From contig JAWLBL010000024.1 of assembly GCA_041687695.1 (NCBI GenBank), positions 13,047 through 77,046 of the forward strand: a DNA stretch of 64,000 nt, given 5' to 3'. Below are positions 1 to 15,984 of the stretch, piece after piece. The position numbers were made by a program, and so were the translations under genes. The DNA comes from Myxococcota bacterium. GTDB taxonomy: Bacteria; Myxococcota_A; UBA9042; PHBI01; JAWLBL01. The notes beneath the pieces are model-generated. The model searched no databases. It had not been told where the DNA came from and worked only from the letters and a program-made list of their open reading frames with translations. The first letter of the stretch is position 1, and each line of letters starts with the position of its first letter.

Positions 1-492
1 CTGGCCTCCCAGTTCGACACCGTGGTCATCGCGTACAACAGCTTCCAGCTCCTCCACTCGCTGTCCGATCAGGAGGCCTGCCTCCGGCGCATCCGGGAGC
101 ACCTCGTCCCGGGCGGGCGGCTCCTCTTCGAGGTCACCCCCTTCCTCCTCCGCGATCCGCCATCGGACTGGTCGCATCGTGCCACCGCCCATTTGCACGC
201 GGATCCGACGATCGCGGGCGACGGGACCGTCGTGTCCGCCTGGGAACGATGCCGCACCCGCCCCTCTGCCCAACTCAACCACTTCGACGTCCGCTACGAG
301 CTCTTCGGGACCGACGGGACGCGCCTGGAGCTGCATCACACCCTCACTCTGCGCACGATCTTTCGTTTCGAACTCGAGTTGTTGCTGACGGCCTGTGGCT
401 TCGCGGTCGAGCGGATCGACGGCGATTACGACGGCACACCCCTCGAAGCATGCGAAGACGAAGGGATGGTCGTCTCCGCGCGCACCACCTGA
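1..492 (+). CDS. Class I SAM-dependent methyltransferase, 5'-truncated by the window edge
   Basis: Frame open from base 1. FDTVVIAYNSFQLL...CLRRIREHLVPGGRLLFE and ELELLLTACGF are typical class I MTase motifs. Confidence 0.8.
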   Translation: MASQFDTVVIAYNSFQLLHSLSDQEACLRRIREHLVPGGRLLFEVTPFLLRDPPSDWSHRATAHLHADPTIAGDGTVVSAWERCRTRPSAQLNHFDVRYELFGTDGTRLELHHTLTLRTIFRFELELLLTACGFAVERIDGDYDGTPLEACEDEGMVVSARTT

Positions 493-502
493 GGGCCTGC
501 GC

Positions 503-2152
503 GTGTGTGGCTTCGCGGGGGTCCTGGGAGAGCCGGCCGAGGACGCTGCCTCGGTGTGGCGCACCCTGGAGCGCCGCGGTGTGCCCGACGGGAGTTGGAC
601 CTGCGGTCGCTTTCGAGGCTGGCAGTCCCGGCTCGCCATCGTGGCGCCCGAGGAGGGGCGCCTCCCGGTTTCGTGGACCCTGTCGCCCGACCACCACATC
701 GTCCTTTTTGGAGCCGGCCAGATCCACAACCATCTCGCCCTTCGGCGCCTGCTGTCAGCCGCCGACCGCGCGCGCGCCCCCAGCAGCGATCTGGCCCTGG
801 TGGGGCTCCTGTGGGCCCGGTTCGGCTTGCAGGGGCTCCGGCTGCTCCGGGGGCCCTATTCGGCGGCCATCTGGGAGCAGCGGGAGGGTCGACGGCGCCT
901 GTGGCTGTGCCGCGACCGTCTGGGACGTCGTCCTCTGTTCGTCGCGCGATCGCCTGGTCGCCTCGCCTTCGCGACGAGCATCGCGACCCTGAAGTGTCTC
1001 CACCCCGTCGGAGCTCCCTGTCCAGACCGTGTCCTGCAGTTTCTGGGCGCTGGCACCACCTGCGCCGATGGTGCCGTTCACCGCGACATCGAGAGCGTGC
1101 CGCCCGGGGGCGTCTGGGGCTTCGACCTCGACGGAGGCTGCGTCATGCAGGCCCGGCTCCCCCCTCCCGCGCTCACGGGGCTGCCCCTCGGAGCGGTGCT
1201 CGCGGCCGCGATGGAGCGCATTCGCCTCGCCGACACGCCCCCAGTCCTGGCGCTGTCGGGTGGCGTGGACTCCTCCTGGATGGCCCTCCGTCTGGCGCGA
1301 CACGGGCCCGTGAACGCCATCACCTTGGTGCGCCCGGGCGTCTCGGATCCAGCATCGTCGCGGTCGGCGCAGGTGGCACGGACACTGGGGCTCCGGAGCG
1401 CCGTCGTGTCCTGGGAGCCTCCTCCGGCCGCTCGGGCGCTCGCCTGCCTCTCCGAGCGCGTGGATCGTCCCGCCTCCACCCCGGCCGTTCTACACAATGA
1501 CGCGCTGCACGCAGCCGTCCCTGGCCGCCTGCTCCTCGGCGGTCACGGCGCGGACGAGGTCCTGGGCGGCTACGGCCGCTACGTCGCCTTCGCCACCGGC
1601 CAGCCTCCGGCGTGGTCGCGAGCCGAGCTGGCCTTGCGTGTGTGCCCCGAGTTCGTGCGCGGCCGGAGAGCGCTCGCAGACTGGATCGCCGCCTCCTCGT
1701 CTTCCGAGCGCCTCGCGCGCTGGTGGGACCTGACCCTCTTGCAGGCTTGGGACAACTTCCACCTGCCCGACGAAAATGGCCTCCACCACGGAGTGGAGGT
1801 CCGGTCTCCGTTCCTGGACCTGGACGTGGTGCGAAGCGGACTGTCGGAGCCGACCTCACACAAGGAGGTCCTGCGCGCCGAGCTCCGCAGCGTGCTCCCC
1901 TCCGAGCTCGTCGACGCTCCCAAGTCGGGGTTCGACACCCCGTTCGACTATGCGGCGTGGCTCATCAGCGAGTGGCCGGATCTTCGACGCGCCTGGCTCG
2001 GTTCAGAAGCCGAGACACTCGTCCCGCGCCATCTGCGCGCCCTGCTGCAGGACGCCGAGGCGCCGCGCTTGGCGCCTCTCCTTGCATGGCGCGCCGTGGC
2101 GCTGAGCGCGCACCTTCAGAGCCATCGACGCCCCCAGATCCTCGGCCAGTGA
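503..2152 (+). CDS. Asparagine synthetase B-like amidotransferase (divergent; family includes lasso cyclases)
   Basis: GTG at 503 gives the Ntn N-terminus MCGFAGV. Also RDRLGRRPLF, ATP-PPase loop [27 protein letters not shown] and PKSGF. Confidence 0.85.
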   Translation: MCGFAGVLGEPAEDAASVWRTLERRGVPDGSWTCGRFRGWQSRLAIVAPEEGRLPVSWTLSPDHHIVLFGAGQIHNHLALRRLLSAADRARAPSSDLALVGLLWARFGLQGLRLLRGPYSAAIWEQREGRRRLWLCRDRLGRRPLFVARSPGRLAFATSIATLKCLHPVGAPCPDRVLQFLGAGTTCADGAVHRDIESVPPGGVWGFDLDGGCVMQARLPPPALTGLPLGAVLAAAMERIRLADTPPVLALSGGVDSSWMALRLARHGPVNAITLVRPGVSDPASSRSAQVARTLGLRSAVVSWEPPPAARALACLSERVDRPASTPAVLHNDALHAAVPGRLLLGGHGADEVLGGYGRYVAFATGQPPAWSRAELALRVCPEFVRGRRALADWIAASSSSERLARWWDLTLLQAWDNFHLPDENGLHHGVEVRSPFLDLDVVRSGLSEPTSHKEVLRAELRSVLPSELVDAPKSGFDTPFDYAAWLISEWPDLRRAWLGSEAETLVPRHLRALLQDAEAPRLAPLLAWRAVALSAHLQSHRRPQILGQ

Positions 2153-3192
2153 TCGCCGAGATCATTGGGTCCCAGATCCGCACCGGGCAGCGGCTCGGCC
2201 ATGGCCTCTACGTGGGCCGCCAGGGGGGCTGATAGGGGCACCCCGAGCGAGGGCAGGCGACGCAAGACGTAAGCGGCACCGGCGGACAAGCCGAGCTCGA
2301 TGACGATCTCCAGGGCGCGGGCGTGTTCGGCAGGGGAGGCGGTCGCGACCAGCGCGGCTACGTCGGCGCATTGATGCGCGCCTCGCCCGAAGCGCTGCAC
2401 ACCCTCCCAGTAGAGCTTGTAGACGGCCAGCGCGATCGACCAGCTTCGGTCGGCCAGGCAGAGGCCGTCGAGGCGGACCGCGTCGCGCAGCAGGCGCCGC
2501 GTGGACACGGCGGGGTTGATTCCGTGGTGCGCGTCCACCACGAGGAAGAGGACGGCGCGGCCCGATCGGACCGTCCAGGGGAGGCTGCAAACGGCCGCGA
2601 CTCGGCTCACGAGATCGACGGACACGCGCTGAGGCGAGAGCTCCACGGGGCGGACCAGGTAGCCGAGCTCGTAGTGCTCGGCCTCGACCAGGCGCCGACG
2701 CTCGAGATCGGGGCGCACGAACTCGCGCATCCGGGGGTTCCAGTCCGCGGCGCTGTAGCCGGCTTCCAAGAGCAGGCGCTCGGCCCGTTCGAGCTCTTCG
2801 GGCCAAACGGCGAGATCGAGATCCCGACCCACGCGGCGCAGGCCCGTCCAGCGCCGCACGGCGCTCCCCTTCATCCAGGCGTGTCGGATCCCTTCTTCGT
2901 CGAGGCGCGCTCCGAGGCGGCCGAGCTCGTCGTCCTGCAAGCGGGCCGTCAGCTCGGCAAGGTCCGCCAGATCACGGGCCAGGCGGAGCTGTGGCCGCTC
3001 CCCATCACATCGGTCCGAGGAGGGGCCGAGCAGATGGGGCGCGACCTGCCAGAGCTCGATGGCCAGACGGTCGAGGCCGCTGGGGACGCCATCGCCGCGG
3101 CTCTCGGCGCGAGGTCCGAGCCAGGGCGCGAGGTCGACTAGCGCCGCGAGGCTGCGACGTCCGGCGTCGTCATTCACGGCCTGATGCGTCAC
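2116..3192 (-). CDS. Nucleotidyltransferase family protein (NTP_transf_5-like)
   Basis: WMKGSAV...RRVGRDLDLAV (KG...R...DxD) followed by LLLEAGY and VDAHH. Start is uncertain (GTG 3192 or 3177). Confidence 0.7.
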   Translation of the reverse strand: MTHQAVNDDAGRRSLAALVDLAPWLGPRAESRGDGVPSGLDRLAIELWQVAPHLLGPSSDRCDGERPQLRLARDLADLAELTARLQDDELGRLGARLDEEGIRHAWMKGSAVRRWTGLRRVGRDLDLAVWPEELERAERLLLEAGYSAADWNPRMREFVRPDLERRRLVEAEHYELGYLVRPVELSPQRVSVDLVSRVAAVCSLPWTVRSGRAVLFLVVDAHHGINPAVSTRRLLRDAVRLDGLCLADRSWSIALAVYKLYWEGVQRFGRGAHQCADVAALVATASPAEHARALEIVIELGLSAGAAYVLRRLPSLGVPLSAPLAAHVEAMAEPLPGADLGPNDLGDHWPRIWGRRWL

Positions 3193-3727
3193 TCGAGGGC
3201 GACCGGACCCGACCAGACACGGGGCCCTCGGTCGTCACAGGGCGGAGCGCGTCGACCCGAGCGGACACGGGCCCGTCGGTCGCGACCACACCCGACACCG
3301 GAATGGGCGAGGCCGACAGCGGGCCGAGGTGTCGGACCAGGGCCGCCGCGACGGCCTCGACGTCCGCGTCCGTGAGGGTCCGGTTGCCGCGGAGGACGGG
3401 AGTGCCGGGCGAGGCGGCGGCCACCGAAGGAATGGGAGAGGCCGAGACGGCCGGGATCGGGGAAGCCGAGACCATGGGGGTAGGCGAGGCCGACAAGCCG
3501 CCGCGGCCAAAGCGCCGAGCGGGCGCGGTGCGCCCCGTGCTCAGCCGGCTGGCGACGAGATCGGCCAGGATCTCGAGCTGGCTCCGGCGGGACATGCCGA
3601 GCCTGCGTGCGACGGCGCTGGCGACATGATCGGCCAGGAAGTCCATGTCTGGGGACTTGGGAGTGGGCGAGGCGCTGCTCTCAGCGAGGGCGAGACGGAG
3701 GAGCTCCTGGAGGTCACGACGAGGCAT
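3170..3727 (-). CDS. Repeat-containing small protein, candidate multi-core peptide precursor
   Basis: ATG 3727 is preceded by AAGGA and the gene overlaps both neighbours. It has five SASP(I/T)P motifs, three amphipathic helical segments and two T(D/E)GPVS(A/G)RV motifs. Confidence 0.7.
   Translation of the reverse strand: MPRRDLQELLRLALAESSASPTPKSPDMDFLADHVASAVARRLGMSRRSQLEILADLVASRLSTGRTAPARRFGRGGLSASPTPMVSASPIPAVSASPIPSVAAASPGTPVLRGNRTLTDADVEAVAAALVRHLGPLSASPIPVSGVVATDGPVSARVDALRPVTTEGPVSGRVRSPSSDASGRE
3428..3499 (-). repeat. Three tandem 24-bp units encoding xxSASP(I/T)P
   Basis: Units 3428-3451, 3452-3475 and 3476-3499 differ mainly at synonymous positions. Confidence 0.85.
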
Positions 3728-4847
3728 GGCGAGTCCTTGTGTCGGTGAGGGTGGCGTTTCGGACGATGAGTTCGGCAACCGAGTCCTGGCCCGGCTCCGT
3801 CCAGCGATGCCGGACGAAGGCGCCGAGGCCGGGAAGGGGGTCCTCCTGCGTCTTCAGCAGGCCCCGCAGCCTGTCTCCCAGGACGTCGGAGTAGGGCCCC
3901 AGGCAGGCCCGCAGCGCGGCCTCGACGGCCGCGACGCCGATCGCTTCGGGGAGCCCGGCAGGGATCCGAAGCGAGGGATGGATGGCGCTCAAGGGAACCA
4001 GGCAGCCGGGCGGGAGCACGTCGCGGTAGCGCTCGAGGATGAGGGCCTGGCTGTAGTTCTGCGGCGGTAGGAAGCGCGGAGGGACGCCCATGGACAGGGC
4101 CTCCACGGTCGTGGTGATCCCAGGGGCCGTGATGAGCCGCTCGCAGCGGGCGAGGCGTCTGACGAACTCGTCGTGCGGCAGATGCCCGATCTGCACGTTC
4201 GGGTAGTCGTCGCGCAAGGCCGCGCTGAGCGCCGCGTTCGTGCAGACGAGGACGGAGCCGTAGCGGGTCGTCGCTTCGGGCAACAACGCCTCGAGCACGA
4301 GACGCGCATAGCGCAGGTAGAGATCACCATGCACGAAGGGGTTGGCCAACCCCGACAGGTTGATGAGCAGCTCCCCGGACCGCGGGCCTCGGGCGACACC
4401 CTGGGCGGCATCGATCGGAGGCACCGCCCGCCGATTGCTGCCGAACTCGACCTCGCGGTCGAGGAGGAAGTCCTGGACGAATACAGCCTGGGCGTTGTCG
4501 ATGCCGGGGGGCGGCGCGTGCCACATCCAGTCGAGGCTGTCCACGACGTACAACGGCGGATCGACGACCGGGTTCCAGTCGGCGGCGACCGACATGTTGA
4601 GGACGCTGACCACTGCGGTCGCATCGGCCGCGGTACGGCGTAGTCGCGCCCGGCCCAGGTCGGTGTCCACCGCCAGCTCGTGAATCTCGTCGAAGACGTG
4701 GGCGCGTCGTGCAAAATCGAGGGCGATGCCGTCACCGTAGAACGCCAGGACGGCTTCGTGACATCGGCGCTGCAGGGCCCGTGCGATGGTCACCGCCTTC
4801 GACACGGGACCGAAGCCGAACGATGTGGACAGAAACACGAACCTCAT
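3714..4847 (-). CDS. GT-B glycosyltransferase resembling cytosylglucuronate (CGA) synthase, BlsD/MilC-like
   Basis: Motifs FGFGPVSK, VDSLDWMW, LINLSGL, LPHDEF, TAPGITT and LPPQNYSQ match my recollection of the CGA synthase family. Confidence 0.65.
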   Translation of the reverse strand: MRFVFLSTSFGFGPVSKAVTIARALQRRCHEAVLAFYGDGIALDFARRAHVFDEIHELAVDTDLGRARLRRTAADATAVVSVLNMSVAADWNPVVDPPLYVVDSLDWMWHAPPPGIDNAQAVFVQDFLLDREVEFGSNRRAVPPIDAAQGVARGPRSGELLINLSGLANPFVHGDLYLRYARLVLEALLPEATTRYGSVLVCTNAALSAALRDDYPNVQIGHLPHDEFVRRLARCERLITAPGITTTVEALSMGVPPRFLPPQNYSQALILERYRDVLPPGCLVPLSAIHPSLRIPAGLPEAIGVAAVEAALRACLGPYSDVLGDRLRGLLKTQEDPLPGLGAFVRHRWTEPGQDSVAELIVRNATLTDTRTRHASS

Positions 4848-7506: not shown

Positions 7507-7542
7507 GCGCTCGGTCGGACGCCCGCTTTGCGGGCTCGGGTC
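7507..7542. repeat. 36-bp dispersed repeat, second copy at 12077-12112
   Basis: gcgctcggtcggacgcccgctt(t/c)gcgggctcgggtc, one mismatch between copies, with an internal gcccgc/gcgggc inverted repeat. Confidence 0.85.
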
Positions 7543-7581
7543 AGACAGAAGGGGGACGCCCTTCGCGGGCGGCAGCCGTCA

Positions 7582-7738
7582 ATGACGGCACCTTGTAGAG
7601 GGACTGAGCTGCGTCGGTGTGGACGACGGCTGGTGCCGCGTGTCCGAGACGCGCGAGCGCCTCGCTGGGTGGGAGCACCCCGCTCTCGTTGTTGGCGTGC
7701 ATCACCGTGACGAGCGCCGTGTCTAGCGTGAGCGCCTC
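7582..7738 (-). pseudogene. Internal fragment of a cysteine desulfurase (NifS/IscS)
   Basis: Hand translation EALTLDTALVTVMHANNESGVL...VVHTDAAQSLYKVP. No start codon and no catalytic C-terminal part. Confidence 0.8.
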
Positions 7739-7867
7739 CTACTTGCCCTCCACCGGACCGGCGAGATCGAAGACGAGGTCGAGCTCGAGCCGCTCGGTGT
7801 TCGCCCCGAGCGGCGTCGCTCGCCAGCCCGCGTATTGGCCGGGATCGAGGGTGGTGGGCTCGCTCAT
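7739..7867 (-). pseudogene. N-terminal stub of a class I methyltransferase
   Basis: MSEPTTLDPGQYAGWRATPLGANTERLELDLVFDLAGPVEGK stops (TAG) just where motif I (VLDVG) would be expected. The ATG overlaps the upstream stop. Confidence 0.6.
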
Positions 7868-8484
7868 CCGGCGCCCCGCCGGCAGAGCGCATAGGCGAAG
7901 GCCTGCGACGCACCCCAGGGCGTGGTGTGCTCTTCGTCGGCCTGGTCGACGAGTTCGAAGCCAGGGCCAAGCGCGGCCGCGATGCCGCTGGATGCGTACC
8001 GGGTCACCGGCAGCCCGCTGCAGCGCTCGGGGCCGTTTGGGCCGAAGGTGGCGATGATTGCGAATCCGCCCGGACGGACGGATCGACGCAGCGCCTCGAT
8101 GTAGGCGTCCCGGCGCTCCGGTTCGGTGAGGAAGTGGAACACGGCGCGGTCATGCCAGAGGTCGACGGTGTCCTCGTCGAAGAGAGGCGTCGTGGCGTCT
8201 CCGACGACCCACTGGACCGAGCGCGCGGCATCGCCGAGGCGAGCTCGGGTGTGGGCGAGCGCCTCGGCCGAGATGTCCGCCACGGAGACGCGCTCGAAGC
8301 CTCGGGCCAGGAGGTCGTCCACGAGCGTCGACGCTCCGCCGCCGACATCGACCACATGGGCGCGAGGGTCGAGCCCGCAGCTGTCGATCCAGGCGAGGGA
8401 ACGCTCGAGGCGTGGCCGGTACCAGCTGACCGCGTCCGGCGACTTGCCGCGATAGACCTCATCCCAGTGCTCGCGCGTGCTCAT
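7864..8484 (-). CDS. Class I SAM-dependent methyltransferase
   Basis: HWDEVY, VDVGGGASTLVD, WHDRAVFHFL and GPERCSGL. Confidence 0.9.
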   Translation of the reverse strand: MSTREHWDEVYRGKSPDAVSWYRPRLERSLAWIDSCGLDPRAHVVDVGGGASTLVDDLLARGFERVSVADISAEALAHTRARLGDAARSVQWVVGDATTPLFDEDTVDLWHDRAVFHFLTEPERRDAYIEALRRSVRPGGFAIIATFGPNGPERCSGLPVTRYASSGIAAALGPGFELVDQADEEHTTPWGASQAFAYALCRRGAG

Positions 8485-8639
8485 GCGTGCTCCCAGCTCT
8501 GCATCCAGGGCTTCGCCAGGTAGCGATCCCAGCCGTCGCACATCACCGTGCTGACCGGACCCGACAAGGGGAGGTCGCAGCCTACGGGCTCGAGACGAGC
8601 GAGCGGCGTGTCGCCGATACGGGCGAGGACGCTCTGCAT
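8481..8639 (-). pseudogene. Cysteine synthase family gene with a large in-frame internal deletion
   Basis: N-terminus MQSVLARIGDTPLARL is joined directly to C-terminus GPVSTVMCDGWDRYL. Only 52 aa, with no PLP-lysine region. Confidence 0.75.
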
Positions 8640-8992
8640 CAGAACACGAGCGTGCGGTCGGCCCACTGCACCCAGTCGGTCAGCGCTTCGAGCGTGCTCC
8701 GCCGGGTGCTCGCGCTCAGCTCGTCGACGGTGATGCCGCGGGCGTCCATGCAGGTCCCGCACACGCCGATCTCGCCGCCGCCGCGGCCGGCCACCTTCAG
8801 CATCCGCTCGATGTTGTAGTAGCCGTTCGGGGTCTGCTGCCCGCGCTTGGTGCAGGCCGCCGCGTCGCCCATGAGGAACACCCGGATCTCCTCGCCGTCG
8901 CGCTTGGCGAGGGCTCCGGCCAGGCGCAGCCCGTCGTAGCTGCGCTCGGTGCCGTAGGGAGGATCGTTGAGGATGAAGAGGGTCTTGGCCAC
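8639..8992 (-). CDS. DsrE/YchN family sulfur relay protein
   Basis: LFILNDPPYGTERSY, VFLMGDA and CGTCMDARG. GTG start with an AGGAG RBS. Confidence 0.9.
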   Translation of the reverse strand: MAKTLFILNDPPYGTERSYDGLRLAGALAKRDGEEIRVFLMGDAAACTKRGQQTPNGYYNIERMLKVAGRGGGEIGVCGTCMDARGITVDELSASTRRSTLEALTDWVQWADRTLVF

Positions 8993-8994
8993 GG

Positions 8995-10563
8995 TCAGGC
9001 TCCTCGTGAGGTGAGCGGACGCTGGGCCAGCCACGCCTGCGTGCCGCCGCACAGCGAGCGCACGGAGGCGAAGCCGAGCTCGCGCAGGAGCGCGGCGCCC
9101 TGCTCGGAGCGGCCGCCGCCTTTGCCGCAGGCGGTGACCAGCAGCGCGTCCGTGGACAGCTCGGCGGCTCGGTCGGCCAGCACGTCGAGGGGGATGTTCA
9201 GCGCGCCGTCCACGTGCGCCTCGGCGTACTCGTCGCGAGACCGCACGTCGATGATGACCGCCCCCGGCAACCGCGCGAGCGCCTCGGGCTCGATGCAGCT
9301 CGCGCCCGCCTTCGCAGGCTCCGATGGCTCCTTGCGCCGCAGCGTCTCGCGCATGCGCACGGCGACCACCACGCCCGACGCGAAGGTCAGCGCGGCGATG
9401 GTGAGCGTGGCGGCCGAGAGCCCGAAGGCGTCGGCCACCATGCCCGCCAGGAGCGCCCCGACGGCGTAGCCCATGTCTCGCCAAAGGCGATAGACGCCGA
9501 CGGACGAGGCCCGCCAGCTCGGGTGGGCGACGTCGCCGATCGCCGCGAGCAGGGTCGGGTAGACCATCGCGGTCCCGAGCCCGAGCAGCACCGCGCCGGT
9601 CGCGAACACCGCGAAGCTCGAGCCCAGCGCGATGACCACGATGCCCGCCGCCTGCGTCCACATGCCGGCGACGATCAGCCCCTTGCGGCCGACGCGATCG
9701 GACCACGCCCCGGTCACGAGCTGGGCGAGCCCCCAGACGGCCGGGTAGATGGCCGCGAGCGTGCCGATCTCGGCGAGCGACACATTCGCGGCGGCGAACA
9801 CGAGCGGGAACAGCCCCCAGGCCATGCCGTCGTTGAGGTTGTTGACCATGCCCGCCTGGCTCACCGACGACAGGTCGGGGTCGGTGAAGCTGGTGCGGGC
9901 GATGACCTCGCGCTGCGAGAGGGTGTCGTGCGCCGCCGTGCCCGCGAGCTTCGACTCGTGGTCGACGTGGTGCAGCGTCTCCTTGACCGCGAAGACCGAG
10001 AGCAGCGTGCCGAGGGCCACGAAGCCGACGCCGAGGTAGAAGGGCTGGGGCCGCAGGCCGACCTCGGCCGCGATGAAGCCCGTCGCCAAGGCCGACAGCG
10101 CGACCGCGAAGTAGCCGGCGAACTCGTTGAGACCCATGGCCAGGCCGCGGTTCTTCGGGCCGGCGAGGTCGATCTTCATGATGACCGTCGTCGACCAGGT
10201 GAGCCCCTGGCTGACGCCGAGCAGCACGTTGGCCGCGAGGATCCAGGTCCATGACGGCGCCCACATCAAGAGGAACGGCACCGGCGCGGCGACGAGCCAG
10301 CCGGCGACGAGGACGTGCTTGCGCCCGAAGCGATTGGACCACCGACCGGCGAAGTAGTTGGTCAGCGCCTTGGTGACGCCGAAGACGACGATGAACGAGA
10401 GGATCGCGGTGCGTGCGGCGAGCTGGAACTCGTCCTCGGCGATGGCGGGCAGGATGCTGCGCTCCATGCCGACCACGGCGCCGACGAAGGCGTTGACGAG
10501 GACGAGCAACGAAAACTGAGCCCAGTTCTCGCGCAGACCGAGTTGGATGGCGGGCCTGCTCAT
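8995..10563 (-). CDS. MFS transporter with a C-terminal rhodanese domain
   Basis: Multiple TM helices with SNRFGRK and SDRVGRK motifs. C-terminal IIDVRSRDEYAEAHVDGALNIP...CGKGGGRS...LCGGTQAW. Confidence 0.9.
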   Translation of the reverse strand: MSRPAIQLGLRENWAQFSLLVLVNAFVGAVVGMERSILPAIAEDEFQLAARTAILSFIVVFGVTKALTNYFAGRWSNRFGRKHVLVAGWLVAAPVPFLLMWAPSWTWILAANVLLGVSQGLTWSTTVIMKIDLAGPKNRGLAMGLNEFAGYFAVALSALATGFIAAEVGLRPQPFYLGVGFVALGTLLSVFAVKETLHHVDHESKLAGTAAHDTLSQREVIARTSFTDPDLSSVSQAGMVNNLNDGMAWGLFPLVFAAANVSLAEIGTLAAIYPAVWGLAQLVTGAWSDRVGRKGLIVAGMWTQAAGIVVIALGSSFAVFATGAVLLGLGTAMVYPTLLAAIGDVAHPSWRASSVGVYRLWRDMGYAVGALLAGMVADAFGLSAATLTIAALTFASGVVVAVRMRETLRRKEPSEPAKAGASCIEPEALARLPGAVIIDVRSRDEYAEAHVDGALNIPLDVLADRAAELSTDALLVTACGKGGGRSEQGAALLRELGFASVRSLCGGTQAWLAQRPLTSRGA

Positions 10564-11222
10564 GTGAGGCCTCCTGCGGCATCGAGCGTGTGGACGGACA
10601 CATCGCTGCGGCGCGCGTCGAAGCCGAGCTCGCGCAGCCGCCGGACGGCCTCGGCCGACAGCGTGCAGAACGGACCCCGGCAGTAGGCGACGATGGTTCG
10701 GTCCCGCGGGAGCTCGCCGAGCCGCGACTCCAGCAGCGGCAGCGGCACCGAGAGCGCGCCGGGCAGGTGCCCTTCGGCGAACTCTCGTTCGGGGCGCACG
10801 TCGAGCAGCGTCACGTCGCGGGCGTGCAGGCGCTCGAGCAGCGTGTCCCGGTCGAGCGGCTCGAGGCCAGCGGGGTCATCGAAGAACTCCCGGGTCAGCT
10901 TCTCGAGCCCTGCGATGTGCTGGGCCGCGACGTCCTGGAGGTGCACGAGCAGCTCGGCGACGTCGCTGCCGGCGAGCGAGTAGACGACGTGGAGGCCGTC
11001 GCGCTCGGTGGAGACGAGCTGGGCGCGCTTGAGCGCCTGCAGGTGGTGCGAGGTGTTCGCCACCGACTGATCGATCTCGCCGGCGAGCACCTCCACCGTC
11101 CGCGGCGCCTGGGCGAGCAGCTCCAAAATCTCGAGCCGCGCCGGGCTCGACAGCGCCTTTCCGACCTCGGCGAGGTGGGCGTAGGCGGCGTTCTTGAAGG
11201 TTCGGGACCTGGACTTCGACAC
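10560..11222 (-). CDS. ArsR/SmtB family regulator fused to a rhodanese domain
   Basis: KALSSPARLEILELL...TSHHLQAL HTH, then LLDVRPEREFAEGHLPGA and YCRGPFC. Confidence 0.92.
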   Translation of the reverse strand: MSKSRSRTFKNAAYAHLAEVGKALSSPARLEILELLAQAPRTVEVLAGEIDQSVANTSHHLQALKRAQLVSTERDGLHVVYSLAGSDVAELLVHLQDVAAQHIAGLEKLTREFFDDPAGLEPLDRDTLLERLHARDVTLLDVRPEREFAEGHLPGALSVPLPLLESRLGELPRDRTIVAYCRGPFCTLSAEAVRRLRELGFDARRSDVSVHTLDAAGGLT

Positions 11223-11246
11223 GTTGACCTCGGCGACACGAAGTGC

Positions 11247-11262
11247 TCAAGTGATTACTTGA
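11247..11262. promoter_or_regulatory. Palindromic operator, probable ArsR box
   Basis: TCAAGT-gatt-ACTTGA is a perfect inverted repeat about 25 bp upstream of the ArsR gene. Confidence 0.65.
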
Positions 11263-11400
11263 ATACGGCCCATGACGGAGCAAGTCAAGGCGCGGACGCG
11301 ACTCCGCAACGCCAGCGTGGGAGCGCGAGGGCCGACGAGAGCACCACGGCCGCTCGTCGCCGACGCTGCGTCGCGCGAAAGCACCGAAAAATCGGGCATG

Positions 11401-11532
11401 AAACGACGAGAGTCCCCGGGGTGACCGCCGAGGCTCTCTGTAGACCGCCCACCGTCGATGACTCGCGGTGGGGTAAGACGGCTCAAATGGGGCCTGGCTT
11501 GCCCGACGCATGAGTGCCCCGCGGGACTACAG
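11401..11532. repeat. att-like junction 1 (arm X - GGCTC - arm Y)
   Basis: 11401-11484 matches 15828-15914, and 11480-11532 matches 12188-12240. Confidence 0.85.
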
Positions 11533-11647
11533 CTGGCGCCGTGAACCCTTGGAACCGCGAACTTCGCCGGCCGTCCGAGGGCCTGCGTCGACCCGTGGGG
11601 CGTGTCCGTCGTCATCGAAGCGGGCGGCTGCGACGAAACCGCCGAGG

Positions 11648-11950
11648 TCACCCGCGCAGCGCCGCGACCCACTCGCGGATCGTCGCGCAGGCTTCGTCGA
11701 GCGGGATGCGTGGGCCCCAGAACACCGGCGCGATCTTCGCCTAGGCCCGTGCGACGCTAGCGCGCTTGTCCGGGTCGTCGAGCACCAGCGACGGGTCGTC
11801 GGCGCTCGGCAGGGCGGCGATGCCCTTGTCTGCGAACATGTCCTCGGCCAGGGCGAGGGTGGAGGTCTCGGTCGGGGGGAGCCGGTCGAGCGCCTGGATG
11901 ATCCGGGCGGCGTCCTCGTAGTGACACACGAAGGCGTCCGCCTCGACCAC
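11648..11950 (-). pseudogene. C-terminal gene remnant with an internal stop, possibly an AbiEii-like nucleotidyltransferase
   Basis: AFVCHYEDAARII...KRASVARA*AKIAPVFWGPRIPLDEACATIREWVAALRG*. The 5' end is replaced by repeat arm Z. Family assignment is from memory. Confidence 0.5.
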
Positions 11951-12192
11951 GGCTCGGGTCGCTGGCCCGAGCCCGACATTCGGACCAGAAATGCAGGAAG
12001 GCCCACCCCCTGGTGGGGGCGGCCTTCCTGGTCTCTGGCTCCGGCGGTTGGACTCGAACCGACACCTGCCTCGCGTGCGCTCGGTCGGACGCCCGCTTCG
12101 CGGGCTCGGGTCGCTGGCCCGAGCCCGACATCCGGGCCAGAAATGCAAGAAGGCCACCCCCTGGCGGGGGCGGCCTTCTTGGTTTCTGGCTC
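11951..12192. repeat. Two direct copies of a ~90-bp arm Z (11951-12041, 12103-12192), each ending in TGGCTC
   Basis: About 7 differences over ~90 bp. Each copy contains a GC-rich terminator-like hairpin. Confidence 0.9.
12036..12060 (-). repeat. Duplicated 3' end of tRNA-Asn (att remnant)
   Basis: tggctccggcggttggactcgaacc versus tggctccggctgttggactcgaacc at 15909-15933 (24/25 identical). Confidence 0.9.
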
Positions 12193-12379
12193 AAATAGGG
12201 CCTACCTTGCCGGACGCATGAGTGCCCCGTTGGTTTACAGGGCGGCCGCGTAAGTCGCTGGAATCACGCGACTCCATCTCGCCCGTCCGCGACGCCCGCC
12301 GGCGTGTGGCTCGTGCCCATCGCCGTCACTCCGGGAGGCTACGGCGAACCGCAGGGCCTGAACCCTCATGATGAACCAC

Positions 12380-12412
12380 TTGCAAAAGGTTACGCGTCGC
12401 GTTACTTTTTGC
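12380..12412 (+). promoter_or_regulatory. Sigma70-type promoter overlapped by an inverted repeat (probable AbiEi operator)
   Basis: TTGCAA-N17-TACTTT, inside the imperfect palindrome gcaaaaggttacgcgtcgcgttactttttgc. Confidence 0.6.
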
Positions 12413-12425
12413 GCGAGGTTCAGCG

Positions 12426-13220
12426 ATGGCGAGTCCCGGCACCCTACATGAGTGGATCGAGGCGCTCCCCGAGGAGGGGAGGTACGTCTTCGCGCGTCCG
12501 GACGTCGACGCGGTGACCGATGCCTCCGCCGCGGCCATCAAGATGACGCTCTACCGGCTGAAGCAGAGCGGCGCCATCGTCACGCCGAGGCGAGACTTCT
12601 TCGTCGTGGTGCCGCGGGAGTACCGCGCGGCCGGCTGCCCGCCGGCGACCTGGTTCATCGACGACCTCATGCGTCACATGGGCCGGCGCTACTACGTCGG
12701 GCTGCTGACCGCGGCTGCGCTCCACGGGGCGGGGCATCAGCAGCCCATGGCCTTCCAGGTGATGGTGGACTCGGCCGAGCGCGACATCGAGGTGGGGCGC
12801 GTCCGCATCGACTTCCACATGAGCAGCGTCTTCGATGGCGCGGCAACGCAGCCCATGCAGACCGAGACCGGCACGATGCAGGTCGCGACGCCCGAGACGA
12901 CCGCCTTCGATCTCGTGCGCTTCCCAGCCGCGGCGGGGTACTGGAGCAACATCGCGACGGTCCTCGCCGAACTCGCGGAGAAGCTCGACCCCGAGGCGCT
13001 CGCCGCCGGCGCCGCGCGCATGGCGAGGACGGACGTGCAGCGCCTCGGCTGGCTCCTCGACTTCGTGGAGCAGCCGGACCTCGCGGGCGCCCTCGCCGCC
13101 ACGGTTGAGGGTAAGCGCCTGCTGCCGACCCCGCTCACGGGGGCCCGCGAGTCGGCCGACGCCCCCCTCGACCCCCGCTGGCACGTGCTGGTCAACGACG
13201 ACGTGGAGCCCGACCTGTGA
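12426..13220 (+). CDS. Type IV toxin-antitoxin antitoxin, AbiEi family
   Basis: N-terminal wHTH, YYVGLLTAAALHGAGHQQP and VATPETTAFDL. Coupled to the downstream toxin. Confidence 0.9.
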   Translation: MASPGTLHEWIEALPEEGRYVFARPDVDAVTDASAAAIKMTLYRLKQSGAIVTPRRDFFVVVPREYRAAGCPPATWFIDDLMRHMGRRYYVGLLTAAALHGAGHQQPMAFQVMVDSAERDIEVGRVRIDFHMSSVFDGAATQPMQTETGTMQVATPETTAFDLVRFPAAAGYWSNIATVLAELAEKLDPEALAAGAARMARTDVQRLGWLLDFVEQPDLAGALAATVEGKRLLPTPLTGARESADAPLDPRWHVLVNDDVEPDL

Positions 13221-14041
13221 TCCCGAGAGCGAGCATCACCGCGTGGCGCAAGGCCGCGCCCTGGCCCGACAACACCCAGGTCGAGCAGGACCTCGTGCTC
13301 TCCCGCGCGCTCGTCGAGCTCTTCCGCCGCCCAGCGTTCGCAGAGGGCGCCGTGTTCCGCGGCGGCACCGCGCTGCACAAGCTCTTCTTCGAACCGCCCG
13401 GTCGCTACTCCGAAGACATCGATCTGGTGCAGCGCACGGCGGGGCCGATCGGCCCGCTCGTCGGCGAGATCCGCGCCGCGCTCGACCCCTGGCTCGGCAC
13501 GCCCAAATGGAAGGCCGGTCAGGGCCGCTTCACCCTCTACTACCGCTTCGACACGACCTTCACGCCCGTCGTGCAGATGCGCGTGAAGATCGAGATCAAC
13601 ACACGCGAGCACTTCGCCGTCCACGGCTACGCCACGGAGCGGGTGGAGGTCGCGAACCCCTGGTTCTCGGGGCACGCCGACGTGGCGACCTTCAGCCTGC
13701 CCGAGCTCCTCGGGACCAAGCTGCGCGCGCTCTACCAGCGCAAGAAGGGGCGCGATCTCTTCGACCTCGACCTCGCGCTGGACCACCCCGCGTTCGACGG
13801 CGACCGTCTGCTCGCGGCCTTCGAACAGTACATGGCGTTCGGCGGCACGCCGGTGACCCGCGCGCAGTTCGAGGCGAACATGGCGGCGAAGCTCACCGAC
13901 CCGGCGTTCCTCACCGACGTGCCCCCGCTCTTGAGGACGGGCCTCGAGCATGACGCCGCCGCGGCATGGGCGCGCGTCCACGCGGCGCTCGTCAGCCGTC
14001 TCCCCGGCGATCCGTGGAAGGGGGACGGCGATGCGCGCTGA
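13217..14041 (+). CDS. Type IV toxin-antitoxin toxin, AbiEii nucleotidyltransferase
   Basis: QVEQDL, FRGGTALHKL, RYSEDIDL, KIEINTREH and KLRALYQRKKGRDLFDL. Confidence 0.93.
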   Translation: MIPRASITAWRKAAPWPDNTQVEQDLVLSRALVELFRRPAFAEGAVFRGGTALHKLFFEPPGRYSEDIDLVQRTAGPIGPLVGEIRAALDPWLGTPKWKAGQGRFTLYYRFDTTFTPVVQMRVKIEINTREHFAVHGYATERVEVANPWFSGHADVATFSLPELLGTKLRALYQRKKGRDLFDLDLALDHPAFDGDRLLAAFEQYMAFGGTPVTRAQFEANMAAKLTDPAFLTDVPPLLRTGLEHDAAAAWARVHAALVSRLPGDPWKGDGDAR

Positions 14042-14102
14042 CGTGCGAGCCGGCCGCCTTCGCCGGCGTCCCTTCATCATCCGCTGACGCGCGAGGTCGA
14101 CG

Positions 14103-15440
14103 ATGTTCACCTCGCGTGGTCAACCCGTTCTCCGTTGCGCCATCTACACCCGCCAGTCGGTCGCGCGCGGCGAGCAGGACCTGACCTCGTGCGACGTGCA
14201 GCGCGAGCGCTGCGAGGACTACGTGCGGGCCATGCAGTACGAGGGCTGGGTCGCCCTCGACGAGCGCTTCGACGACCTCGGTGTGAGCGGCGGCAGCCTC
14301 GAGCGGCCCGCGCTGCGGCGCCTGCTCTCGTGGTGTGCGCAGGGTCGGGTCGACGTCGTGGTGGTCACGAGCCTCGACCGGCTCGCCCGCAAGATGTCCG
14401 ACTGGGTGCGGCTCAACGACTGGCTGAAGCAGGCCAGCGTCGAGCTGGTGATCTTGCAGGGCGCCGGCGGGGCACGTGGGCCGCTCGCCGAACTCGTGAA
14501 CAACGTGGTAGCGAGCCTGGCCGAGTTCGAGCGCGACATCATCCGCGAGCGGCTGCGCGAGGCGAAAGGGCGGGCTCGCGCTCGCGGGCGTCGTGCCGCC
14601 GGACGCGTGCCGCTCGGCTACCGGGCGGACCCGAACACGCGGCAGCTCGTCGTCGACGAGGACGAGGCTGCGCTGGTGCGGGCGTTCTTCGAGCGCTGCG
14701 CCGCCGGCGAGTCGGGCGCGGCGATCGCCGCTTGGGCGAACGCGGCGGGCCACCGAACCAAGGTCCATGGAGGCAAGGGCGGCGCGAAGTGGACGGGGCG
14801 CTCGGTGCTGCAGGTGGTCCGCAACCCGATCTACGTCGGCCGTCGCGCTCACGGAGAGGGCACGGTCGAGGGCGTGCACGAGGCGATCGTCGACGAGGAC
14901 CTCGCCCGGCGCGCCTTCGCGGCGCTCGACGCCCGGCGCACGCGCGAGCCGTCGCCTCGGTCGAAGACGCCGCAGTGGGACCAGGACCCGTGGATGCTGC
15001 GCGCGCTGCTGCGCTGCACCGGCTGCGGGCGCGTGATGACGACGACGGCCTCGGCGGCGGTCACGATGGAGAACGCCGACGAGGTCCCGCGCTACTACCG
15101 CTGCCGAGGGGACGCCGCGCGCCCGGCTTGCACACCGCCGGTGCAGGTCGCCGCGCGCCACGTCGAGGCGCGGGTGCTGACCGTGCTTCGCGAGGCGCAC
15201 ATCTCCTGGTTCCGCGACGACCGCTCGCGCGGCTTCCTCGAGGCCCTCGCGCCCGCGTGGGACACGTGGCAGCGCGACGACGTGGGCGCCCGCAACGCGA
15301 TGGTGCGCGGGCTCGTGTGGAGCGCCGAGTGGGATCGCGAGCTCGGGCTGACGAAGCTCGTGCTCGACGACATCACCGTCGACGCCTTCATTGACGAGGA
15401 CCCGGTGCTCGTCGAGACGCTCCCGGCCCGCGCCGAGTAG
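14103..15440 (+). CDS. Large serine recombinase (resolvase, recombinase and Zn-ribbon domains)
   Basis: AIYTRQS, DLGVSGGSLERPAL, LDRLAR, LAEFERDIIRER, PLGY, NPIYVG, HEAIVD and CTGCG...YYRC. Confidence 0.92.
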   Translation: MFTSRGQPVLRCAIYTRQSVARGEQDLTSCDVQRERCEDYVRAMQYEGWVALDERFDDLGVSGGSLERPALRRLLSWCAQGRVDVVVVTSLDRLARKMSDWVRLNDWLKQASVELVILQGAGGARGPLAELVNNVVASLAEFERDIIRERLREAKGRARARGRRAAGRVPLGYRADPNTRQLVVDEDEAALVRAFFERCAAGESGAAIAAWANAAGHRTKVHGGKGGAKWTGRSVLQVVRNPIYVGRRAHGEGTVEGVHEAIVDEDLARRAFAALDARRTREPSPRSKTPQWDQDPWMLRALLRCTGCGRVMTTTASAAVTMENADEVPRYYRCRGDAARPACTPPVQVAARHVEARVLTVLREAHISWFRDDRSRGFLEALAPAWDTWQRDDVGARNAMVRGLVWSAEWDRELGLTKLVLDDITVDAFIDEDPVLVETLPARAE

Positions 15441-15908
15441 GACGTCAGACGCTCAATGCACCGACGACGCGTCGGCACGAGAACCACGGTGCGCGTCTCC
15501 TGACGTCTCATCGCCGCTGCGTGCTCTCGACGCCGCCGAAAGGGGGAGGTGGATGCTATTCGCGCTCCGGGAGCTTGTGGCGAGTCGGCCGACGGAGACG
15601 CGCCCGCGCGCGCCGAAAAGCGCTGTCGGGATGTCCCACTCGCCGCTGTAAACCGGGTGCTCTTTGGTGTTAAGCGCCCGGACGCGTCTCCAGGTGTCTG
15701 CGGGCCCGTCGAGAGCCCGTTTCGATCCCTCGGCGGCGTCTCGCGAGGTGGCCGTGGCTCTGGTGCTCGTCCACGGCTCGCTCCGCCGTCGTCGCGGTAC
15801 CTCGCGCAAGCCCGCGTCAACAGGCCAAAAACGGCGAGAGCCCCGACGGCGTGACCGTCGAGGCTCTCTGTAAACCGCCCACCGTCGATGACTCGCGGTG
15901 GGGTAAAA

Positions 15909-15984
15909 TGGCTCCGGCTGTTGGACTCGAACCAACGACCTAGCGGTTAACAGCCGCTTGCTCTACCGACTGAGCTAAGCCGGA
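15909..15984 (-). tRNA. tRNA-Asn (GTT)
   Basis: TCCGGCTTAGCTCAGTCGGTAGAGCAAGCGGCTGTTAACCGCTAGGTCGTTGGTTCGAGTCCAACAGCCGGAGCCA: 76 nt, cloverleaf, encoded CCA. Confidence 0.97.

Follow-up and report, generated by a model that had tools for sequence, protein, structure and literature searches.

The window analysed here is a 64,000-nucleotide stretch of contig JAWLBL010000024.1 from a Myxococcota bacterium (G000:C24:13047-77046, in a genome of 7.97 Mb in 63 contigs). It carries a three-gene element of 3,722 bp (12193-15914) that is bounded by junctions at 12188 and 15910 and encodes AbiEi, AbiEii and a large serine recombinase (LSR) of 445 amino acids. The element abuts the 3' end of a tRNA-Asn gene. 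Its recombinase has no coiled coil, and a conserved 10-bp motif is common to the element ends and the anticodon loop of the tRNA. The account favoured below, with moderate confidence, is that the element was inserted at the tRNA-Asn 3' end by its own coil-less LSR, that reuse of the resulting joints produced arrays, and that the motif aids synapsis. Labels used are G plus a number for a genome, L plus a number for a fetched locus, and C plus a number for a contig or protein within a genome. Genome and metagenome collections supplied close homologues of the LSR (90-98%), and sets of 61, 401 and 107 related genomes supplied more distant ones; the genomes compared include none from the same family as G000. 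The viral contigs searched contained no relative of this LSR.

Table 1. Features of the tRNA-Asn locus, from the tRNA gene leftwards (window coordinates; TC is the proposed crossover dinucleotide).
Feature	Position	Strand	Remarks
tRNA-Asn(GTT)	15909..15984	-	sole copy in genome; B arm; adjoins RNase J gene
Anticodon-loop motif CGGTTAACAG	15944..15953	+	30-39 bp from TC; top match of the matrix trained on X arms alone
X2, element right end (P' arm)	15771..15914	+	two hairpins, motif 15868-15877 between them; tRNA junction of attL type
Two further motif copies	15646-15655, 15667-15676	-	258 and 237 bp from TC, spaced 21 bp
LSR, 445 aa	14103..15440	+	resolvase, recombinase and zinc-ribbon domains; catalytic S19; four Zn cysteines; no coiled coil
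AbiEii toxin (type IV toxin-antitoxin/abortive infection)	13217..14041	+	Pfam PF08843; PADLOC E 1e-101
AbiEi antitoxin	12426..13220	+	Pfam PF09407; PADLOC
Core and Y2, element left end (P arm)	12188..12240	+	motif TGGTTTACAG 12231-12240; Z2 junction of attR type
Z2 (B' arm)	12103..12192	-	single long hairpin, motif absent
33-nt tRNA 3'-end copy and spacer	12036..12112	-	tRNA part 12036-12067, anticodon motif absent; last 36 nt of spacer (12077-12112) = 7507-7542
Z1, second terminator-arm copy	11951..12041	-	with the tRNA fragment, likely a partial duplicate of empty attB
3' AbiEii-family gene fragment	11741..11950	-	last 70 codons, cut at a GGCTC
X1-GGCTC-Y1	11344..11532	+	decayed attP-type seam; X1 motif 11438-11447 one base off, Y1 motif decayed
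Cargo left of X1	7543..11343	-	ArsR-rhodanese 10560-11222; MFS-rhodanese 8995-10563; DsrE 8639-8986; methyltransferase 7864-8541; class-V aminotransferase fragment 7580-7738
36-bp copy of spacer/Z start	7507..7542	+	ends in GGCTCGGGTC, 7533-7542 = 11951-11960

An initial annotation had placed GGCTC cores at 11480, 12037, 12188 and 15910, joining X1 to Y1, Z1 to a tRNA fragment, Z2 to Y2 and X2 to the whole tRNA; all four are present with these arms. GGCTC by itself is little informative, with 17 plus-strand copies in 11401-15984. The arm copies align over 91 nt at 92% identity for Z (E 1e-30), 145 nt at 79% for X (E 9e-26; the final 68 nt at 93%) and 53 nt at 85% for Y (E 5e-10), and the tRNA fragment matches tRNA-Asn over 33 nt at 91% (E 1e-4). 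Among the BLAST matches listed, X, Y and Z each have exactly two copies in the genome, the next match having E of at least 0.004, and are therefore not genome-wide repeats. A hidden Markov model (HMM) of X-type arms finds X1 and X2 only in G000 at E below 0.4. The terminator-like hairpins proposed for X and Z hold as strong folds on the tRNA strand (z -5.9, -2.5, -8.7 and -3.6). A terminator scan on that strand calls X2 and Z1, but the sole call at Z2 is on the plus strand.

The GGCTC at 15910-15914 corresponds to G71, A72, G73, C74 and C75 of tRNA-Asn, so that the core does overlap the CCA end, as GAGCC on the tRNA strand. The X end provides G73-CCA and a replacement terminator, and therefore the tRNA remains whole; its hairpins likely restore termination of the tRNA. 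The modelled empty site likewise yields a full tRNA-Asn call. Z2 is likely the native tRNA-Asn terminator. In G006, a one-contig genome without a PF07508 match, tRNA-Asn is followed by a similar single hairpin and then by metabolic genes, and another such hairpin is at the far end of the island in G010; both are consistent with Z being native at this tRNA. Z and X share a CCAGAAA lead-in, and the X-arm HMM scores Z weakly (E 0.59). The alternative that Z is itself an element end was ranked lower, because Z has no motif and resembles these G006 and G010 flanks. An imperfect inverted repeat at 12369-12430, the probable antitoxin operator, precedes abiEi and is retained ahead of differing cargo in related elements.

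The assignment of attP as Y/X and of attB as tRNA/Z is supported. The predicted X2/Y2 joint is present in three other assemblies (L023, L024 and L033), matching at 104/105, 114/120 and 110/120 nt (92-99%). An AAATAG-type Y opens LSR units wherever the left end was included; at the other end they close with a double-hairpin arm whose last bases are RGCTC. The fetched loci hold 12 distinct AAATAG-type Y junctions. Y follows an X-type arm in eight (window 11480, L023, L024, L033, L034, L036, G009 and G074), Z in one (window 12188), and unrelated DNA ending in GATC or GGTC in three (L025, L026 = L116, and L118). One of the latter lies inside an IS3-like open reading frame (ORF), and the opposite ends of all three are beyond their contigs. 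As TC is common to all 12, the crossover is likely at the TC of GGCTC (15913-15914, tRNA positions 71-72). The shared GGCTC core thus stands, with crossover likely at TC only. In four of four sequencing runs, the sequence left of Y is an X-type or X-like arm; these stretches of 8-26 nt fall below the 31-nt bridge threshold and are a hint. Contigs matching 11.2-16.2 kb are related elements, and contig matches end at 12240. The att sites do not look like ordinary 50-bp sites: between the core and the conserved motif are 30-48 bp, and additional copies are found at 237-267 bp.

The recombinase matches PF00239 (E 1e-32), PF07508 and PF13408. It has no match to DUF4368, the domain of the multi-targeting, TndX-like LSR clade; off-target Y junctions, as noted, number three. 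An alignment was made of the query and 70 of 120 listed homologues, fragments being omitted and the search limited to 244-779 amino acids. In its 71 rows S19 is nearly invariant and R68, D92, R93 and R96 are invariant; the zinc-ribbon cysteines are C305, C308, C334 and C343. The span from the fourth of these to a conserved Trp is 24-47 residues in 71/71 rows. In 12 long relatives, where the equivalent Trp was picked by eye, it is about 110-160 residues and mostly 128-137. Aligned with the 533-residue G009 C515, residues 3-364 match at 38% and residues 380-445 match 465-530 weakly; the coiled-coil position holds 15 residues in the window LSR and 107 in this relative. An AlphaFold (AF2) model (pLDDT 89.5, pTM 0.62) places helix 351-364, a loop, helix 373-392, closing strands and two short extra helices. 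Fold searches retrieve Bxb1 (E 3.6e-16) and the SPbeta integrase (Z 18.9, root-mean-square deviation 17.8, 386 aligned residues, model 7-428 on chain 10-537). In an unrooted tree of the shared region, one branch with 100/100 support splits 38 short from 12 long forms. Ratios of nonsynonymous to synonymous substitution (dN/dS) for three close relatives are 0.11, 0.11 and 0.15; for G009 the ratio is 0.30. By sequence, the window LSR belongs to a conserved clade that lacks a coiled coil of ~90 residues, and in this it departs from the canonical directional serine integrases of the LI, Bxb1 and phiC31 type.

In the accepted model, the coiled coil is necessary for intermolecular synapsis and directionality (PMC3783163). 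LI integrase engineered to lack it binds DNA normally and excises all four site pairs intramolecularly, but its intermolecular integration is abolished (PMC3783163). Searches of open-access literature listings turned up no account of the motif, of arm-type sites for an LSR, of a coil-less LSR clade in nature or of an LSR that uses tRNA-Asn. The Durrant preprint and paper do not contain the word 'tRNA' in their main text (0 occurrences); their supplements and the TIGER/Islander tables may list these sites.

The second unusual trait is the motif. An unsupervised 9-mer search of 22 X arms returned TTGTTAACA-like sites, 19/22 of them at 34-39 bp from TC. A matrix trained on X arms alone, without tRNA or Y sequence, has its best match at +30, in the anticodon loop of tRNA-Asn (1/2000 shuffles), and also matches Y2 at +39 (1/2000 shuffles). 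It ranks tRNA-Asn first among the 60 tRNA calls of the genome, and a matrix rebuilt from internal X arms only gave the same result. The 10-bp motif is thus placed at +30 in the tRNA, +39 in Y and -36 in X, and again at -237 and -258. At the 1% level it occurs in 0/10 Z or Z-like arms, and it is absent from the tRNA fragment. Y is 95% conserved in four relatives over +1 to +48, through the last base of the motif, and 62% over +49 to +96. In X arms the inner 30 bp are highly variable and the hairpins are kept. Distal copies, 237-296 bp out, occur in 15/21 X ends, several of which are near-identical and hence not independent, and in 0/2 Z-like flanks; those of X2 have the same orientation as its proximal motif and are candidate accessory sites. 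Genome-wide there are 133 motif hits of at least 12 bits, six of them in the 4.6-kb region studied, including two training sequences. In LI the zinc-ribbon motif is located at 16-24 in attP and 11-19 in attB (PMC3783163). The linker of the window LSR is just six residues longer than that of the long relative, which was judged too short for 20 bp more reach, so that binding of the motif by a second recombinase subunit or another protein is more likely.

Related islands tie short LSRs to the same tRNA, as the initial annotation had proposed in linking the junctions to this recombinase and in reading the locus as a tandem array. G010 has a 4.5-kb island of the form terminator-ATGGCTC-[frameshifted 51% LSR homologue and cargo]-X-ATGGCTC-tRNA-Asn, and its short LSR is the sole PF07508 match there. 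In G009 the order is X-Y[AbiE, 64% LSR homologue]X-[53 kb, DUF2924, long LSR]X-tRNA-Asn. In G419 a short LSR is followed by two X seams, the second at tRNA-Asn. All three islands are contiguous with the tRNA, and the arrays of G009 and G419 end at it. X arms that adjoin tRNA-Asn in different genomes can be near-identical (L075 = the end of L033; L060 = L040). The X motif is at the expected distance in 11/28 scorable tRNA-Asn flanks, the window included (33 loci, five dropped as too short or not tRNA-Asn).

Variants of these arrangements were seen at the same tRNA. X-type arms adjoin tRNA-Asn at L087 (G017, with arsenic-resistance-type, ArsR-rhodanese and MFS cargo) and L088 (G001); neither genome has a PF07508 match, and both loci are likely recombinase-less cassettes. 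At L075 (G001) and L046 (G063), the adjoining arm, with AAGCTC or TAGCTC before the tRNA, replaces the encoded CCA of tRNA-Asn; G73 and C74 alone are kept. The element left end at L095:19573-19620 (G419) is a degenerate ~45-nt tRNA-Asn copy that retains the anticodon-region motif. The near-identical LSRs of L024, L033, L034-L037 and L039 come with exchanged toxin-antitoxin cargo (AbiE variants, or a helix-turn-helix and PIN-like pair) and swapped X ends, which suggests recombination in the shared region upstream of the hairpins.

A general scheme can be proposed. (i) The LSR would join a circular X/Y site to the chromosomal tRNA/terminator site by crossover at TC. (ii) The tRNA/X joint would then be reused, yielding tandem arrays with X/Y seams; such seams are present in relatives, and the order of events is conjectural. 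(iii) An older array would have been trimmed by deletions, leaving the decayed seam at 11480. (iv) Target choice would depend on the 10-bp motif, which is the same as the anticodon loop of tRNA-Asn, has a mirror copy in each element end and is repeated ~200 bp inside X. (v) Recombinase subunits on distant motif copies may bring the partners together in place of the coiled coil. (vi) A recombinase of this kind would have little directionality. A broader proposal is put forward tentatively, as possible but less probable than the scheme itself: the natural coil-less clade may integrate through a lambda-like or resolvase-like architecture, with recombinase subunits on distant motif copies (30-48 and 237-267 bp from the crossover) looping the DNA for synapsis, and such a direction-free enzyme would assemble and reshuffle cassette arrays at tRNA-Asn.

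Several points weigh against the scheme. No tRNA lies within the fetched DNA of L023-L026 and L033-L039, which include most close homologues, or of L081-L084, and the three Y junctions off target speak against a strict tRNA link. The motif is significant in just 3/8 Y arms scanned. Inverted symmetry of X and Y within 25 bp was not found, with no peak at TC over 3-25 bp. The motif and its distal copies also occur at the ends of long-LSR elements (the tRNA-proximal one of G009) or without a nearby short LSR; they are therefore a family trait and no proof of compensation for the missing coil. The C-terminal part of the LSR is weakly constrained against G009 (dN/dS 0.68). A run of the source sample was not found, and the sequencing runs searched contained at most 24% of words. 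The older insert described below lies beyond both terminator copies, which calls for extra duplication and deletion steps in one of several possible orders. Finally, since coil-less LI integrase cannot integrate, a helper integrase may be needed here.

That last point leads to the strongest competitor, which is nevertheless improbable: a coiled-coil relative, a DUF2924-linked long LSR with the same X-type ends, would integrate the element in trans, and the short LSR would be no more than an unregulated resolvase that cuts cassettes out and reshuffles them within arrays. In its favour is the LI result, excision of all four site pairs without integration (PMC3783163). In G009 and G061, short-LSR elements stand in the same arrays as long LSRs or DUF2924 genes and have the motif in common with them. 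Intramolecular deletion could account for the off-target Y junctions and for the GGCTC/GGGTC breakpoints at 11951 and 7542. In both G000 and G010, however, tRNA and terminator directly flank a short-LSR element, and neither a DUF2924 match nor a long family member was found, so that a helper would have had to arrive and leave twice.

More doubtful still is the initial reading that all four junctions are crossover products, for instance through a direction-free enzyme that exchanged attL-type and attR-type arms and left X/Y and Z/tRNA side by side. All four arm combinations do occur with the same core, and a coil-less enzyme is expected to recombine any site pair (PMC3783163). Junction 12037 does not fit. 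Z1, the tRNA fragment and Z2 form a repeat of 151-bp period that reaches far past the core, and the fragment stops short of the anticodon motif; crossover shifts arms and does not duplicate them. The same kind of duplication is present in G015, which has no LSR match: on the reverse strand of L092 (13050-13340), part of the tRNA-Asn 3' end, with terminator, occurs three times in tandem. Tandem copies of tRNA end and terminator are also known at tyrT of E. coli. Given the 151-bp period and the G015 copies, junction 12037 is likely a local duplication of tRNA end and terminator, that is, a duplicated partial attB.

There is only a slim chance that the LSR element is a passenger of a lost tyrosine-integrase island, with the tRNA fragment as the attR of that island. 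A repeat of ~33 nt from the tRNA 3' end is the usual scar of tyrosine integrases, but none was seen among the ORFs scanned here (a genome-wide search for one was not made). Just 5 bp are common to the element ends and the target, LSR units of many other genomes are likewise framed by Y and X, and the distance from fragment to Z2 is 35 bp only. Although the assembly is a metagenome-type draft in 63 contigs, an assembly artefact or chance repeats are very hard to credit: the arm copies have diverged by 8-21%, which argues against a collapsed repeat, and the same junction types are found in independent assemblies.

An older insert lies to the left. At junction 11480, a cargo unit and an LSR unit of an older tandem array meet in a seam, now decayed, that has the same form as the seams in L023, L024 and L033. 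Three features had escaped the initial annotation: the 36-bp repeat (7507-7542 = 12077-12112), the 10-bp direct repeat GGCTCGGGTC at 7533 and 11951, and the AbiEii-like gene fragment between junctions 11480 and 12037. This fragment, 68% identical over 68 amino acids to residues 220-287 of the PF08843 protein of the G009 element, comes from an older sister element. The two repeats bracket an older 4.4-kb insert with broken genes at both ends, of which 7507..7542 is the probable outer limit. Homologous ArsR-rhodanese and MFS genes lie behind an X-type arm at tRNA-Asn in G017. Two other explanations were rejected. The 36-bp spacer is not a genome-wide repetitive extragenic palindrome, having no further genome match within 9 mismatches, and the insert is not a circle that closes one split gene, its ends being fragments of different genes.

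The locus has the marks of a tandem LSR island anchored at a tRNA or tmRNA gene, an intact tRNA-Asn with att seams in the window, G009 and G419. As such, the array is an ordinary kind of hotspot, since LSR arrays at tRNA-like 3' ends are already known. The element works like the Dehalococcoides ssrA islands and the composite islands of the staphylococcal cassette chromosome (SCC) and is a member of neither. PMC3146451 describes, for the former, tandem islands behind a single-copy tRNA-like RNA gene, a CcrB-like LSR (DsiB) that adjoins the site, and many islands without the integration module. They differ in their ssrA target, 20-bp direct repeat and T-loop insertion, and in a DsiB of 540 amino acids with a partner, DsiA, in a six-gene module (PMC3146451). 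The window element instead targets the last acceptor-stem pairs of tRNA-Asn, shares 2-5 bp with it and has a single 445-residue coil-less LSR; the ssrA gene of G000 is on another contig. SCC and SCCmec, with CcrAB or CcrC, are likewise tandem cassettes assembled by LSRs; they are rich in defence genes, sit at a conserved gene's 3' end and can be excised in any combination (PMC11470126), and their directionality is relaxed (PMC12286644). Their target is rlmH, whereas the window element has a single recombinase gene and neither a ccr gene complex nor a replication module. The Ccr proteins are presumably only distant relatives of the window LSR.

With the phage-type integrases (LI/A118, Bxb1, SPbeta SprA and phiC31) the window LSR shares catalytic, recombinase and zinc-ribbon domains and, probably, the 2-bp crossover (PMC3783163). 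Relative to the B arm, the motif is displaced outwards by 6-9 bp in the P arms, a shift that is 5 bp in LI (PMC3783163). Unlike these enzymes, the window LSR has no coiled coil and its motif stands at 30-48 bp instead of 11-24 bp; extra copies occur at 237-267 bp, and attL-type joints are apparently reused. The DUF2924-linked long LSRs are closer (38% for G009 C515 over the first 364 residues) and share X-type ends, motif and tRNA-Asn target, but keep an insert of coiled-coil length in elements of ~50 kb; the literature searched contained no experimental description of them. Tycheposons also build up in tandem at tRNA hotspots, a minority with LSRs; 910/937 use tyrosine recombinases and leave partial tRNA repeats of ~40 bp (10.1101/2020.12.28.424599). 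Two traits are unusual here, a coil-less LSR clade and an anticodon-loop motif well outside the canonical 25-bp half-sites. As attP, attB, attL and attR can all be read at one locus with a coil-less LSR under purifying selection, the coiled-coil model is directly testable by plasmid assay. The outcome would reveal either that synapsis can be reached by a second route or that two enzymes divide the labour in island arrays. The motif suggests how an LSR picks one tRNA species, and att sites of this family should be taken with arms of at least 50 bp each, perhaps 300 bp.

Other features of the genome were noted. The other two LSRs of G000 are distant from that of the window (32% and 25%). The first, a long form (C19:142167 onward, 32%), belongs to a ~35-kb element at C19 ~108,700-143,720 that interrupts one copy of recA at its ...FINQ... 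codons; the other recA, on C27, is continuous there, and L002 covers the right end. A third, distant LSR at C57:6123-8039 has a coiled-coil-like stretch and a C-terminal helix-turn-helix-like tail. Window positions 395-4847, together with L001:3600-14000, form a cluster of lower GC content at third codon positions that encodes GNAT, radical SAM, two DegT aminotransferases, a phosphatase/kinase, and asparagine synthase-like and nucleotidyltransferase proteins. No X or Y arm was found in this cluster, which may be another acquired block. The first bases of the contig (G000:C24:1-142) are a ~140-bp repeat that has many copies in the genome, often at contig ends.

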